A stretch of DNA of 63,505 nt, the filler included, from Basidiobolus ranarum (taxonomy: Eukaryota), in assembly GCA_040143965.1 (NCBI GenBank). It is 51 parts of 51 records of this genome, joined end to end, with 100 filler letters (N's around TTAATTAATTAA, not from the genome) between each part and the next. Parts side by side here need not be neighbours in the genome. Positions count along the whole stretch, not along the records: positions 52,439 to 53,580 come from JASJQH010013129.1; 50 more parts are not named here. The stretch is one strand, 5' to 3'. Position numbers and translations under genes: made by a program. The notes below the pieces were generated by a model. It was not told the DNA's origin and ran no database searches. It saw only the letters and a list, made by a program, of their open reading frames with translations. Below, one piece after another: positions 6,755 to 57,303 of the stretch (position 1 is the stretch's first letter; the number at the start of each line of letters is the position of its first letter).

Positions 6755-7523
6755 TGTGCATCAACATACAAAGTTGTTGAACTTATGCCATATCTATACA
6801 ACATGCATGAATATCTGTTTAGTTTATCATTATTGCTAACTAGTCACCTGACTTTATCCAGTGACTTTATCATGTGACCAATCACCTGACTAACTATCTA
6901 TTTGCATATCCCTTCAATCAGATCTTATGAACAATCACATGATTATTATCTAATCTGTATTAACCTTGGAGTCATCTGCCTAGACACAAGTCAATATGAG
7001 TCACAAGATTCATAACCATTGATCTTTCACTGCCAATACTTCAGCTGATGCATAAGTCACTTATATATCTATTTATCTATCCAATCACATTTTCTTCTAT
7101 TTGAATTGGTCATCTAATATCTTGGTGCTGACTAATTCACTTTGCTACCAAAAAGTATAAATAAAGCTAACTGAACCTTTTGGTTTAGTGTGTGTCTCAA
7201 TGAATATAGGATCTCAACACTTCTCAGTGCTTCTCAACAAAGTCAACATTCCCTTCTCATTTCTAACCAAGCCTAGTATCCACAAGCATCTACAGAACAC
7301 CAAGCCTAGCTGCCTAGCAAACCTACTCTCTGCCATAACATAGCAACCCACTGCTATTCCCAAGACATATATTAGTTAGATCTGCTCTGCTTATAGATCC
7401 TGCTTAACAGTTCTAAGATTCTGNNNNNNNNNNNNNNNNNNNNNNNNNNNNNNNNNNNNNNNNNNNNTTAATTAATTAANNNNNNNNNNNNNNNNNNNNN
7501 NNNNNNNNNNNNNNNNNNNNNNN

Positions 7524-8676
7524 AAATATTAGTCCACTCATAGCACTTACAGTAAAGGAAGCAGCTTTGATTATTGAGGAGTGGAGAGCTCAATCCAATC
7601 TTAGCAACCAGGTGTTTATTGGTTTTCTTACACTTTTACCACAGTTGATTGGTAACTGTTGCTTGCTACAGACCTGGTACAAGTGGAAAACACTTGTCAA
7701 TTGTATGCCTTATAATCCTTCAGTGATTAAACTGCCTTCTTGTCCAAATTGTTGTTTGGCTTTCACCGTTGATCTGAAAAACCTGAAGTCAAGTACTGTT
7801 TGCACACAATTGGCAATCACTAAATCAGGTAAATATTGTTCATATTTGGCTTACATACTGTTGATTCCCCAACTTAAAGTTTTGATGAAATCACCAAAAT
7901 ATAGTTCATTGATCCAATACCAAAATACTCACCATAAAGCTGATGGTATTACCAATATACTTGATGGATATCACTACCAGAATCTGAAGAGTCAAGGTTT
8001 CTTTGCAAACATGTATGGTAATGCATTTGCATTGGCTCTGGATGGTTTCTCACTAAACAAATATACCATTGGAAAGGCTTGCTGGCCAATAATTGTAATC
8101 AACCTAAATCTTCCTCCTCCTGAAAGGTATAAGAGTCATAATATTGTGATACTATCCATTGTATCTGGACCTAAATCACCTGTGCTTATAGTTAGCTTCT
8201 TGGAGCCTTTGATTATGGAATTTGAATGGTTATCTAATGGGGTTTGGATGGGTGAATATATGATTAAAGCTAATATCATTGTATGTATTGGTGACACTCC
8301 GGCAATCAGTAATCTTGGTGGTTTTTGTGGGCACAATGCACTATTTTGCTGTAGATTTTTCAAATCAATGGAGTTTACTCTATCAGGCATATGCTTTACT
8401 ACTGTCCAAATACAATACTATACTTCATGATTTTACCTTCAAGAGCCCGGTCAGATTTCAACATGATCACTGATATCAATTCACCAAATAATCAGTGTAA
8501 CATCAAACTTGGTATTAGCAATAAGCCTGAGATTATGTTGTTGAAGGGGATCAGCTAGAGCCAGAGCTTCCCATTAGGCACCATGCACTTACTATTAAAC
8601 AACATTCCAATGCTACTTATTCAGCTATATAATGGAAAATTCAATATGAATGAGCCAATTGAGATAGGATCAAAGT
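7524..8676 (+). mobile_element. CMC/CACTA (Transposase_21-like) transposase, frameshifted
   Basis: CPNC...C zinc motif, LALDGF (first catalytic D), WPIIVINLNLPPPERYK, GPKSP, FLEPLIMEF, GDTPA (second D), GH-A--CCRF. Confidence 0.9.
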
Positions 8677-31743: not shown

Positions 31744-31750
31744 TATAAAA
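31744..31750 (+). promoter_or_regulatory. Putative TATA box of the CHAP gene
   Basis: TATAAAA about 70 nt upstream of ATG 31818. Confidence 0.45.
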
Positions 31751-31817
31751 CGACAGTGGAAGCTCAATTACAAATCAGAACTGGTCTACTATTAGAAACA
31801 TATCCTTAAACATCAAA

Positions 31818-32357
31818 ATGGTCAATCTTACACCTGCTTTATCATGCGTGTTCCTCACAGCCGCCACTTTCATAGCCTCTTCTGTTAATGCCCTACCAAG
31901 TCACAATACAGTTGCTGCTCCTAATTCTTCAAACCAAATCGAGGTAGCTAGCATATCCAGTAAACTCGCTAATATCAGCGTGCTAGCCTCTTGCTCTCGC
32001 AGCTTCCGCTTCAACAATGGCCAATGTACCGACTGGGCTGATGCCCGCTACTATGAGCTCACTTGCCAGCATACGGAGTGGTGGGGTGATGCTCGCACCT
32101 GGCCCAACAGTGCCCGCAATGTCAACGGATGGGTTGTCTCTAGTCAACCACGCGTTCCCTCCATCATTGTCATTCAGCCAGGCTATCAAGGCTGTGGATC
32201 AACCGGTCATGTCGCCGTTGTAGAGCGTATAAACAACGATGGAAGTGTGTACACCAGCAACTGGAACTACAAGTTCAACGGACAAGGTGGAGTTTATTCT
32301 ACATCCTATGGAAACTTCAATACTGGCAGTGGTGTATCCTTCCTCTGGCATCAATAG
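31818..32357 (+). CDS. Secreted CHAP-domain protein (putative peptidoglycan amidase/endopeptidase)
   Basis: Signal peptide; GQCTDWA (catalytic Cys), WWGDARTW, GHVAVVE (catalytic His), SNWN; intact, intronless; AATAAA about 12 nt after the stop. Confidence 0.92.
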   Translation: MVNLTPALSCVFLTAATFIASSVNALPSHNTVAAPNSSNQIEVASISSKLANISVLASCSRSFRFNNGQCTDWADARYYELTCQHTEWWGDARTWPNSARNVNGWVVSSQPRVPSIIVIQPGYQGCGSTGHVAVVERINNDGSVYTSNWNYKFNGQGGVYSTSYGNFNTGSGVSFLWHQ

Positions 32358-32580: not shown

Positions 32581-32959
32581 TATTGGGAAAATATGGGCTG
32601 TTTGGAGGAACTTTAGAAAAGTGGAGTTGTGAATAGCTTTGGGAGATAATTATTTATTGTCCAGAAATACAGCATTTATACATTTTGATGGAAATACAGA
32701 AAACTAACACTGGTGTTGTGTTGAGAACATTTGTAGGAGTAAAATGAGCTATCCTTGGGGCAGTTTTGACAAGTTTGAAATTTCCAATATGTAATTGCTA
32801 ATTCTCACATTATTCACATATATATATAATATATGTTCCAATTTTTTAGCTAAGTGATATTTGACTAAGTAATGTTAACTAACATATATGTGATATATGA
32901 AATAGTTAGGTGTATAAAGAGAGAGATAACATATATGATAAAGACAATAAACTTCAACA
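32581..32959 (-). mobile_element. Copia family C solo LTR with 5-bp TSD ACTTT
   Basis: ACTTT at 32576-32580 and 32960-32964; TGTTGAAG...CCCAATA ends; homologous to 52551-52926. Confidence 0.9.
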
Positions 32960-49954: not shown

Positions 49955-51096
49955 AAGCTCTAGTAGTGCATAGACTGTGTTCAAAGTGTTTCCCATACCA
50001 GCTGATTCTTACAGCAATACCTTTGTTGTTTGTCACCAGTCTTTAGCACTACATACACTTTGCTTATAATGTGTCACATACCACTTGTTTCTGGGCACCA
50101 TACCTAGCATTGTTTGTCAGTATTTTTCAGCACTGCATAGCCTCTACTTTTAGTGCCTCTCATATGGTGTGTTTCTTTGCACCATTCCCAGCATCGTATG
50201 TAGGCAGTCTTTAGCACTCCAAAGCCTCTCCTCTTGGTGCTTCCCATAGGGTGTGTTTCTTGGCACCATGCATTTTGTTATTTGACAGTATGCTTTAGCT
50301 CTACGTAGACTTTCCTTTTAATGCCTCCCATATGGCATGTTTCTTAGCACCATTAATTTTGTTGTTTGACAGTGTTTTTTAGCTTGTCATATACTCTCCT
50401 TTCAGTGCTTCCCATATGGTGTGTTTCTGGGGACCAAACATTTTGTCATTTCACAGTATTCTGTAGCTCTACGTAGACTCTCCTTTCAGTGCTTCCCATA
50501 TGGCGTGTTTCTTGGCACCATACCTTTTGTTATTGCACAGTAATCTTTAGCACTGGTCAGCCTCTCCTTTTAGTGCTTCCATTGCCACCTGTTTCTGGGC
50601 ACCATACTATTCGTCGTTCGTCCGTATCTTTTAGCGCTACGTAGCCTCTCCTTTTGGTGCTTCCCATACGGCGTGTTCCTGGCACCATACCTTAGTGTGT
50701 CCCATAACGTTTGTTACCTGGCACCATTCCCATAGTCATATATAGGCAGTCTTTAGCACTACAAAGACTCTACTTTTAGCGCTTCCCATATGGCGTGTTT
50801 CTTGGCACCATATATTTCTTTATTTGACTGTATTCTTTAGCTCTGCATATACTCTCCTTTCAGTGCTTCCCATACAGCGTGTTTCTTTGCACCATACCTT
50901 TTGCTATTGGACAGTACTCTTCAGCACTGATCAGCCTCTCATTTTAGTGCTTCCATTACCGCATGTTTCTGGGCACCATACCTTACGTCGTTTGTTGGTA
51001 TTTTTTAGCACTGCCTAGCCTCTCCTTTTAGTGCTTCCCATACGGCGTGTTACTTGGCACCATTCCCATCGTCATATGTAGGCAGTCTTTAGCACT
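49955..51096 (+). repeat. 84-bp satellite, about 13 diverged monomers filling the whole contig
   Basis: GCACCAT anchor at about 50095, 50180, 50262, 50347, 50515, 50599, 50682, 50721, 50805, 50889, 50973 and 51057. Confidence 0.92.
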
Positions 51097-52438: not shown

Positions 52439-52926
52439 AACATCCATGATTTGTAATTTTCTCCATCAAGCTTTTCAACACTTGAGTTAATAAAAGTGGT
52501 AGTAGTGGTTTCTGTCATGCTGTAAAGGTTAGCACATGGCACTCATAACCTATTGGGAAATTATGGGCTGTTTGGGGGAACTTTAGAAAATGGTGTTGCA
52601 AATAGCTTTGTGAGATGATTATTTATTGTCCAGAAATAAAGCATGTATACATTTTGGTGGAAATATAGAAAAATAACACTGGGGTTATGTTCAGAACATC
52701 TGTGGGTGTAAATGAGCTATTTTTGTGGCAATTTAGATGAGCTTGAAATTTCCAATATGGAATTGTTATTTCTCCCGTTATTCACATATATATATGATAT
52801 ATGTTTCAATTTTCAGTTAAGTGAGATTTGACCAGATAATGTTGACTAACTTATATGTGATATATGAAATAGTTAGGTGTAGAAAGATCAAGGTAACAAA
52901 TATGATAAAGAAAATAAACTTTAACA
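52439..52926 (-). mobile_element. Copia family C 5' LTR (52926-52551), PBS (52550-52539) and gag start, inserted in LTR B
   Basis: GGTTATGAGTGC PBS; MTETTTTTFINSSVEKLDGENYKSW. Confidence 0.85.
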
Positions 52927-52981
52927 CTTAGATCATAACAAACATGCCTGTCAAGCATGGGTGAAAATTTGAGGTGATTTG

Positions 52982-53263
52982 TGTTGAAAGTCTGGTGACT
53001 TGTGGTACAAGCAGTAATTCCAAAAGAGGAAAATGTGGAGTATGGTCACTGCATCTGAATACAAAGTCTATGGCCAATCAGTTGCTTGTATAGCTGATAT
53101 GCTAAAGTACTATTTATTGACAGACTAGATTAAGGTTCCCTATCAATATAGACATAGCATACAAGGACTGGTAACTCAGTGGTTAGTGCACCTTGCTAGA
53201 GTGAAGGAGGTCCCAGGTTCAAATCCTGGCCAGACAAGTATTTCTACCTACATAATTTCAATA
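52982..53263 (-). mobile_element. 282-bp solo-LTR-like element with 5-bp TSD ATTTG, inserted in LTR B
   Basis: ATTTG at 52977-52981 and 53264-53268; inverted ends TGTTGAAA...TTTCAATA; removing it restores the LTR B sequence; AATAAA on the minus strand near 53116. Confidence 0.88.
53165..53236 (+). tRNA. tRNA-like sequence (pseudo-tRNA; isotype uncertain, loop CTAGAGT) inside the solo LTR
   Basis: A-box TAACTCAGTGG, B-box GGTTCAAATCC, perfect T-stem CCAGG/CCTGG, anticodon stem CCTT/AAGG, partial acceptor stem, AGGTC variable loop, 72 nt. Confidence 0.8.
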
Positions 53264-53580
53264 ATTTGGAGAAGATTTGAGAAAATAGTGAAAATTGGTA
53301 AAAGTGATCTAATTGATATTTTTATACATTAGAGCAATAAACACATGTTTTTGAATGACAGAATTGAGTACTAAATAATCATATTATGAATACACTAACT
53401 ACTGAATAATGAGTTGCCATTTACCTAATTTCAATATTCCCACTCAACTAATTGTTTTGTATTTCTCTTAAACCTGGCTTATATCTTAATAATTCAAATT
53501 GTGCTTTAGCTAAAGATTTGGTTAAGATGTCAGCTATCATTTCTTCAGTTGGGCAATAAAAAAGTTCAACTATTTCATTC
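53264..53580 (-). mobile_element. Copia B RNase H end, PPT and 3' LTR start (53436)
   Basis: CPTEEMIADILTK; GAGTGGGAA PPT. Confidence 0.88.
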
Positions 53581-53680
53581 NNNNNNNNNNNNNNNNNNNN
53601 NNNNNNNNNNNNNNNNNNNNNNNNTTAATTAATTAANNNNNNNNNNNNNNNNNNNNNNNNNNNNNNNNNNNNNNNNNNNN

Positions 53681-56062: not shown

Positions 56063-56162
56063 NNNNNNNNNNNNNNNNNNNNNNNNNNNNNNNNNNNNNN
56101 NNNNNNTTAATTAATTAANNNNNNNNNNNNNNNNNNNNNNNNNNNNNNNNNNNNNNNNNNNN

Positions 56163-57303
56163 TACAGTGATGCAGACTGGGGAAGAAACCTTGATGATAG
56201 AAGATCAACAACTGGATACACTTTTCTCTATGGTAATGGAGCCATAACTTGGAATAGTAAGAAGCAACTAACCATACCACTTTCCACTACAGAAGCAGAG
56301 TATATGGCTGCCTCTGCTACTACACAAGAAGCTATGTTGTTAAGGAAGTTATTTACAGACTTAGGATACGTGCAGAAACGTGCTCTTACTTTATTTGAAG
56401 ATAATCAAAGTTGTATTTCATTAGCTAAAAACCCTACATTTCATGCTAGAACAAAACATATAGATATTAGGCATCATTTTGTTAGAGAAGCAATAGAGAA
56501 TGATATAATTGAACTTGTCTATTGCCCTACTGAAGAAATGATAGCTGATATCTTAACCAAACCTTTAGCTAAAGCACAATTTGAATTATTAAGATATAAG
56601 TTAGGTTTAAGAGAAACACAAAATAATTAGTTGAGTGGGAATGTTGAAATTAGGTAAATAGCAACTCATTATTTAGTAGTTAGTTTATTCATATTCTGAT
56701 TATTTAGTACTCAATTCTGTCATTCAAAAACGTGTGTTTATTGCTCTAATTGATAGAAATATCAATTAGATCACTTTTACCAATTTTCACTATTTTCTCA
56801 AAACTTCTCCAAATCACCTCAAATTTTCACCCATGCTTAACAGGCATGTTTGTTATGATCTAAGCACGTCCAATAGTCCTATTTCATAGTAAACTATAAA
56901 TAGGACATATTCAATTCAATAAAACTTAAGTGTCTAATTCACAAATCCAAATCTTGTCCAAAACACTTCCAAATCCCCTAAACACTTTTATCAGGTTATG
57001 AGCCCCAAGCTAGCTGTTAAAGGAATGTCTACCAGTACTATTACCAACGTTTTTGCATCCACAGAGAAGTTTGATGGTGAAGACTTTCACCTTTGGAAGT
57101 TCAAGATGCAAATGGTGCTAGAAGACAAGGACCTTTGGGGATTTGTTACAGGAGAAGAAATAGAGCCAAAGGGACCACCAGAAGCTATCCTTGCCTTTCA
57201 CAAGAAGCAGAGGAAAGCACTCTCTACACTTTGTCTACATCTCAGAGATTCTCAATTGAGGCACATACAATCAGCCAAAAACGTCCAAAATGCTTGGGAA
57301 ACA
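56163..57303 (+). mobile_element. Copia B: RNase H end - PPT - LTR (56642-56993) - PBS (56994-57005) - gag start
   Basis: ARTKHIDIRHHF, ADILTKPL; GAGTGGGAA; GGTTATGAGCCC; EKFDGEDFHLWKFKMQMVL. Confidence 0.93.

Follow-up and report, generated by a model that had tools for sequence, protein, structure and literature searches.

Among described mobile elements, those closest to the locus studied here are the Helenus elements, which are small non-autonomous LTR retrotransposons with an RNA polymerase III (Pol III) promoter of tRNA origin in their LTRs (Kojima 2024, PMC10886601). They have the layout of a TRIM, in which two LTRs surround a short noncoding internal part that holds a primer-binding site (PBS) as well as a polypurine tract (PPT), about 300 to 1300 bp overall (PMC10886601), and their promoter motifs are an A box of the form TRGCY...YGG and a B box, GGTTC (PMC10886601, section 3.5). 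In fungi, 113 families have been described in rusts (Pucciniales) and a few in Agaricomycetes; they are linked to Copia elements, with which they have primer-binding sites in common, they produce 5-bp duplications, and many of them are known solely as solo LTRs flanked by such duplications (PMC10886601). Table 1 of that study contains no fungus outside Basidiomycota, and the underlying screen began with Repbase LTRs and was extended to related genomes only (PMC10886601, section 2.1). Helenus copies also inflate tRNA gene predictions in rust genomes, with Ser-AGA among the types predicted (PMC10886601, Table 2).

The finer features of the fungal families are taken here from about 55 consensus LTRs in parts 1 and 4 of the 11 parts of DataS1 (PMC10886601), compared by eye; families in the other parts might fit better. 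Nearly all of these LTRs begin with TGT, most of them with TGTTG. Their tRNA-like part is in sense orientation, lies in the 3' part of the LTR, and is followed by a tail of about 0 to 50 nt. At least six end in AATA (e.g., LTR-1_PGr and Helenus-1_MAec, the latter ending in TTTCAATA), and many internal parts in the same portion of DataS1 open with the primer-binding site GGTTATGAGCCC. Two further groups of TRIMs have a promoter from a different small-RNA gene: Cassandra of plants, whose LTR holds a promoter derived from 5S rRNA, and Ajax of nemerteans, which has a 5S piece (PMC10886601).

The locus examined here is a 282-bp unit in a Basidiobolus sequence. The window (the whole 63.5-kb stretch of DNA that was analyzed) is AT-rich, with 31 to 39% G+C in 2-kb steps, and is a patchwork of nested transposon fragments, for which a self-comparison lists 168 repeated segment pairs. 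Pfam domains in it include Copia reverse transcriptase (RVT_2), gag-pre-integrase, Tf2-type integrase, RNase H, and a piece of Transposase_21. The observed/expected ratio is 0.20 for CpG, 1.31 for TpG plus CpA, and 1.11 for GpC; judged from these ratios, the CpG depletion and TpG/CpA excess bear the mark of methylation-driven C-to-T decay of repeats. The Transposase_21 piece, a DNA transposase fragment of the CACTA/En-Spm type, lies on the + strand at 7480-8430 among retrotransposon debris. At 50017-51096, in the sole stretch of the window with raised G+C (0.39), an 84-bp sequence is repeated in tandem (about 8 + 4 copies, 70 to 76% matches). Nonbiological blocks (44 N, TTAATTAATTAA, 44 N; e.g., 53581-53680) recur every ~1,250 bases, giving 100 runs of N and 4,400 N, and interrupt ORFs and repeats, for example between 56106 and 56115.

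The unit interrupts a Copia LTR, LTR B, which abuts a second one, LTR C. The features of the insertion and of its host are as follows.

52982-53263, + strand favored but unproven: the inserted unit, 282 bp, read as a solo LTR of the Helenus type
52977-52981, no strand: left copy of the target-site duplication, ATTTG (empty-site copies have a single ATTTG)
53264-53268, no strand: right copy of the target-site duplication, ATTTG
52982-52989, + strand: 5' terminal motif of the unit, TGTTGAAA, the same start as in most copies of the local Copia LTRs B and C
53238-53263, + strand: 26-nt tail 3' of the tRNA-like part, with a T run at 53241-53243 and the terminal TTTCAATA at 53256-53263
52927-52981, - strand: host LTR B left of the insertion, delimited by paralog matches
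53264-53434, - strand: host LTR B right of the insertion, with its 5' end (TATTGAAATTAGG, minus strand) at 53434
53435-53580, - strand: end of the host Copia pol frame and polypurine tract GAGTGGGAA, from translation by reading
52551-52926, - strand: LTR C (5' TGTTA/GAAG ... CCCAATA 3'), a Copia LTR abutting LTR B at 52926
52539-52550, - strand: primer-binding site of LTR C, GGTTATGAGTGC, directly after that LTR

The preliminary description of this locus reported a 282-bp insert with inverted ends and a perfect 5-bp duplication splitting a copy of LTR B, and paralogs that lack the unit bear this out. In the self-comparison of the window, 56864-56810 is 98.2% identical to the left flank (52927-52981), and 56814-56498 is 93.1% identical to the right flank (53264-53580); the two matches overlap by exactly the 5 target bases. 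The same 5-base overlap is found in a second paralog (42000-41946 and 41950-41633), and a third (2007-2058 and 2056-2225) has an overlap of 3 bases. When the unit and one ATTTG are removed from the host copy, it aligns without gaps across the site to all three empty copies. The ends of the unit, 5' TGTTGAAA and 3' TTTCAATA, are complementary at 7 of 8 positions. LTR-type ends with a duplication of 4 to 6 bp, 5 bp in fungi, are the signature of an LTR-retrotransposon-type insertion, and the unit has both. Given the empty-site paralogs, the ATTTG on both sides, and the ends of the unit, we conclude that this is a real insertion with a 5-bp target duplication and that it is more recent than the host LTR. 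It was an integrase event of the Copia type that placed the unit in the LTR of a Copia element, as the LTR-type ends, the 5-bp duplication, and the intact empty sites elsewhere demonstrate.

The strand of the host can be read from its surroundings. On the minus strand, 53435-53580 contains the end of a Copia pol frame (...YCPTEEMIADILTKSLAKAQFELL...stop) followed by the purine run GAGTGGGAA and then by LTR B, from 53434 down to 52927; in another copy, a homologous + strand ORF (56115-56630) extends up to LTR B. Based on the pol C terminus and polypurine tract on the minus strand, together with the positions of primer-binding sites, host LTR B is a 3' LTR with its sense strand on the minus strand here. 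In sense, LTR B starts with TGTTGAAATTAGGTAAATAGC and ends with ...CACTTTTATCA, and two copies are then followed by the primer-binding site GGTTATGAGCCC; LTR C starts with TGTTA/GAAGTTTATT and ends with ...CCCATAATTTCCCAATA. Six sites with up to 2 mismatches to GGTTATGAGCCC lie directly after LTR ends of the local Copia elements. The LTR B copy at 56115-57030 has a pol-frame end and polypurine tract before it and the GGTTATGAGCCC site after it, at 56994, so that two successive elements seem to share it, the first using it as 3' LTR and the second as 5' LTR, in a tandem arrangement. LTR C is also present as a solo copy (32581-32959) with a perfect 5-bp duplication, AAAGT, and this family ends in CAATA rather than in the CA-terminal CAACA. 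A Copia gag-integrase ORF of the window has no near-length protein matches, a Copia reverse transcriptase ORF has distant matches only, to plant, oomycete, and unnamed sequences, and a protein-atlas comparison yielded no usable taxon.

The unit itself has 39% G+C and not a single CpG. No second copy of it was found in the window, where none of the next best BLAST matches exceeds 26 nt. No terminal direct repeats were found within the unit, which rules out its being a complete tiny TRIM. A PBS-like TGGTACAAGCAG (53003-53014) and a purine run (53022-53033) near its 5' end were rejected as a true internal part because the preceding 21 nt do not repeat the last 21 nt of the unit.

What distinguishes the unit from an ordinary LTR is the following sequence near its 3' end.

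53165-53237, + strand: tRNA-like sequence, a pseudo-tRNA (ARAGORN, Ser-AGA; Rfam tRNA)
53172-53182, + strand: A-box-like TAACTCAGTGG, with A in place of the G of the TRGCY motif (TAACT)
53216-53226, + strand: B-box-like GGTTCAAATCC

The tRNA-like part occupies positions 184 to 256 of the 282, with 183 nt before it and 26 nt after it. A cloverleaf-like sequence with A and B boxes had been noted from inspection of the DNA, and two programs agree with this. ARAGORN calls Ser(aga) at 53165-53237 on the + strand as its sole tRNA in the 63.5-kb window, and makes no tRNA call in 20 shuffled copies of the window. The Rfam tRNA model scores 33.3 bits, only 4 bits above its gathering score of 29, with an E value of 1.6e-4 for a 2.5-kb region and of 0.004 for the whole window, where this is the single tRNA match. 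In the cloverleaf, the acceptor stem contains two mismatches and the anticodon stem contains one, which makes the sequence a pseudo-tRNA rather than a working gene. Its variable region is short despite the Ser anticodon, and tRNA-Ser requires a long variable arm; a genuine tRNA gene would have an intact cloverleaf and an anticodon consistent with the body, and 53165-53237 does not have this combination. A primer tRNA copied by read-through during reverse transcription was considered as the source and rejected, since there is no CCA complement and the position is wrong. The pentamer ACAAG occurs at both borders of the tRNA-like part (53161-53165 and 53234-53238), which could be chance, estimated at a few percent, or a trace of the entry of the tRNA-like piece into the LTR. 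The T run that follows consists of merely three T's (53241-53243).

These features bring the unit close to the published fungal Helenus. Like Helenus-4_PGr, Helenus-4_PSt, Helenus-2_MLP, Helenus-1_MAec, Helenus-4_CroRib, and Helenus-16_CroRib, for example, which have LTRs of 110 to 285 bp starting with TGTTG in the DataS1 portion compared, it is short and starts with TGTTG; its length of 282 bp is almost that of the Helenus-4_PSt LTR (about 284 bp by line count). In the same set, the 3' part of the LTR contains a tRNA-like stretch with A and B boxes, followed by a short tail and sometimes by a CAATA end, and the unit would match each of these if its + strand is the sense strand, with a tail of similar length by eye; both boxes are kept inside an LTR-like unit, apart from the one A-box difference. 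Read as a solo LTR, the unit has the 5-bp duplication seen in those families, and the local Copia elements use the GGTTATGAGCCC primer-binding site, as in the fungal Helenus internal parts of that portion. Even the predicted type of its pseudo-tRNA, Ser-AGA, is listed for rust Helenus. It differs in having Basidiobolus as host rather than Pucciniales or Agaricomycetes, in its A box (TAACT against the published TRGCY), in the T3 after the tRNA-like part where many rust families in DataS1 parts 1 and 4 have TTTT or longer, and in being known here as a solo LTR, whereas paired LTRs and an internal part belong to the published elements. Because it has the same + strand layout and the same Copia primer-binding site, we infer that the unit is probably the solo LTR of a Helenus-type small non-autonomous LTR retrotransposon, a TRIM with a tRNA-derived Pol III promoter in its LTR. 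The preliminary description had proposed a possibly undescribed kind of fungal LTR carrying such a promoter; the LTR-like insertion with A and B boxes stands, and the suggestion that its kind is undescribed does not, given the match to Helenus.

The resemblance to Helenus is one of design, and the likeness in sequence appears to be limited to generic tRNA features, as far as consensus sequences compared by eye can indicate. A 22-mer of the T arm of the unit is identical in Helenus-4_CroRib, Helenus-16_CroRib, and Helenus-2_MLP, in the passages of DataS1 that contain them. A metagenome scan with this 22-mer returned at least 120 loci, at least 91 of them inside ordinary tRNA genes of 14 types; the match to Helenus is therefore generic, and the shared 22-mer was rejected as proof of kinship with rust Helenus. 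Among the matches listed, the ordinary tRNA genes are mostly tRNA-Met on bacterial-looking contigs, the 29 further loci are mostly tRNA 3' halves or unrelated tRNA-like elements, none of the 120 loci resembles the unit outside the tRNA-like part, and the best match covers 75 nt at 79% of a tRNA-Ile on a bacterial-looking contig. By eye, some rust families in the DataS1 portion compared look similar to the unit at the start of the tRNA-like part (its first six bases, GACTGG) and in the tail (...TTTCT...ACAT...TTTCAATA); this may reflect shared constraints, namely the integrase site and a T-rich stretch. Three of the metagenome loci (L046, L064, and L066; 31 to 36% G+C) are tRNA-like with the same T arm and have no ARAGORN tRNA call; T runs follow the tRNA-like sequence in two of the three, and outside it they show no relation to the unit. 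All three may be eukaryotic elements resembling SINEs or Helenus.

Other known systems fit the unit less closely. With Cassandra and Ajax, which the preliminary description had suggested for comparison alongside Helenus, it shares a Pol III small-RNA-gene promoter inside the LTR of a non-autonomous LTR retrotransposon; that promoter is 5S derived there and tRNA derived here, and an Rfam search of the whole window at E values up to 10 found no 5S rRNA match. Of the three comparisons, it is the one with Helenus that the design of the unit suits. The tRNA-derived SINEs (SINE2) begin with a tRNA-like head, close with a tail that LINE machinery copies, and produce duplications of variable length. 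The unit resembles them as a short non-autonomous retroelement with a tRNA-derived internal Pol III promoter, and differs in having 183 nt before the tRNA-like part, no tail of the A-rich, simple-repeat, or LINE-derived kind, and LTR/integrase-type ends with a 5-bp duplication, so that the SINE2 combination of 5' head, tail, and variable duplication is absent from it. In yeast, the Ty3 sigma and Ty1 delta LTRs insert beside resident tRNA genes. There, as here, an LTR and a tRNA sequence lie close together, and the difference is that the tRNA-like part here belongs to the mobile unit itself, enclosed by its ends and by the duplication.

The alternative that deserves the fullest weighing is that the unit is an ordinary Pol II-type solo LTR in minus sense, from a Copia or TRIM family related to LTR B, with the tRNA-like sequence as an antisense passenger 27 nt from its 5' end. 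The passenger would then have no role in the RNA of the element and could at most serve as a TFIIIC/Pol III site. The preliminary description took the tRNA to be antisense, and the two observations behind that view were reproduced. The minus strand does start like a local Copia LTR (by manual count, 16 of 20 positions agree with the LTR B 5' end), and it carries AATAAA (TTTATT at 53113-53118). It also contains a TATA-like AATAAATAG at about positions 147 to 155, which by reading resembles the TATAAATAGG of LTR B. The minus-strand ends of the unit pair with those of LTR B in matched order, with scores of 18/25 at the 5' end and 14/25 at the 3' end, and passengers do exist, since "not a few" Repbase LTRs contain tRNA-like pieces (PMC10886601, section 3.1).

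The match at the 5' end, which is the best of 16 terminus comparisons, has a P value of 0.0002 against random 25-mers and of about 0.01 under a null model that keeps the shared 8-nt end motif, and no other of the 16 falls below 0.05 under that model; for the 3' end the corresponding values are 0.02 and 0.12. LTR ends are inverted repeats, and the match at about 0.01 is one among 16 comparisons. Aligned over its whole length to LTR B or LTR C, the unit is at noise level on either strand (z of -0.03 to 1.1), which speaks against a relationship to LTR B. In minus sense its LTR would start with TATTG, unlike the TGTTG of the other LTR B copies and of two of the three LTR C copies. On the + strand, the unit has a TGTTG start, a sense tRNA-like part near the 3' end, a 26-nt tail, and a CAATA end, as a solo LTR without PBS or PPT, and it has the TGTTG...CAATA asymmetry in common with LTR C in its proven sense. 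The tRNA-like part has the position and direction that the published sense design predicts, for which random placement would have a chance of about 1 in 5 by our estimate. On these comparisons, the LTR ends alone do not settle the orientation. Since the published Helenus design has the tRNA-like part pointing at an end a short distance away, here 26 nt, we prefer the + strand as the sense of the unit, a preference and not a proof. The antisense placement is accordingly not favored, given the single terminus match, the asymmetry shared with LTR C, and the sense orientation of the published fungal LTRs in the DataS1 portion compared, and we regard the passenger explanation as unlikely.

It is more doubtful still that the tRNA-like part is peculiar to this one LTR copy, as the result of a tRNA pseudogene, a SINE of tRNA origin, or a copy of a primer tRNA landing there. 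The window contains a single copy of the unit, and the ACAAG pentamers at the two borders would suit such an event; the estimate for a flanking pentamer arising by chance, with a few bases' freedom, is a few percent, which lessens the weight of that repeat. Neither a SINE body nor a tail of A-rich or simple-repeat sequence is present; only 26 nt follow the tRNA-like part, the LTR terminus included, and CCA is absent from its 3' end, hence it is no copy of a mature or primer tRNA. An origin as a miniature DNA transposon (MITE) with 8-bp terminal inverted repeats and an incidental tRNA-like piece, which the inverted ends (7/8), small size, and lack of coding capacity might suggest, is very improbable, as the local Copia LTRs have the same ends (TGTTGAAA / TTTCAAYA), the 5-bp duplication has the length of that of the local Copia solo LTR (AAAGT, 32581-32959), and the inverted repeat stops by about 11 nt.

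If the unit is a Helenus-type solo LTR, a pathway can be proposed for it on the published model. In the ancestral element, two such LTRs would have enclosed a short internal part that held a primer-binding site as well as a polypurine tract. Transcription of the full element by Pol III would begin in the 5' LTR at its tRNA-like part, at about position 184 of 282, pass the weak T run and the internal part, and end in the 3' LTR, giving a terminally redundant RNA. An autonomous Copia element whose LTRs have similar ends would supply the proteins for reverse transcription and integration of this RNA. Relatives of LTR C or LTR B in the window would be potential partners, and LTR C is a candidate relative of the mobilizing element. 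Recombination between the two LTRs would then have left a single LTR with its duplication intact. The solo copy is no longer mobile. It would be at most a putative Pol III/TFIIIC site, with a predicted transcript that would begin near 53165 and stop in the T5 run at 53319-53323, about 160 nt in all, and the A-box departure (TAACT for TRGCY) may have weakened the promoter. No influence on any host gene is evident for it, a single solo LTR among abundant transposon sequence.

The lineage of the DNA can be read from a single gene, a CHAP-domain ORF (peptidase C51 in Pfam; 31749-32357, + strand), which is 79% identical to a protein of Basidiobolus meristosporus. Its best matches are proteins of B. 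meristosporus and B. ranarum, followed by Ktedonobacteria-like proteins, and in a tree it falls in a well-supported clade of 16 rows in which all others are Basidiobolus paralogs. The ORF, which lies in a transposon-rich region, is apparently a member of an expanded gene family of probable bacterial origin; passages of a review describe many genes of bacterial origin in Basidiobolus genomes (PMC10386755).

In the passages covered of the literature from 2024 onwards, we found no paper extending the fungal range of Helenus. The kind of element is already described, and the host lineage may be the new part. Our broader proposal, that a Helenus-type family, active or recently active, exists in Basidiobolus-like early-diverging fungi outside Basidiomycota, with a rust-like layout and Copia partners primed at GGTTATGAGCCC, is tentative, and we consider it a real possibility that falls somewhat short of probable. 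If it is true, the design would predate the split between Dikarya and zygomycetes, or would have arisen repeatedly, or would have spread horizontally together with its Copia partners. Gene prediction takes such copies for tRNA genes (Ser-AGA in this case), and they would distort tRNA censuses, as documented for rusts (PMC10886601); tRNA gene predictions would then be inflated in Basidiobolus-like genomes in the same way. Were the family real, the range of LTRs with a tRNA promoter would widen from Basidiomycota to an early-diverging fungal lineage, providing a second fungal group in which to ask how Copia proteins use a Pol III RNA.
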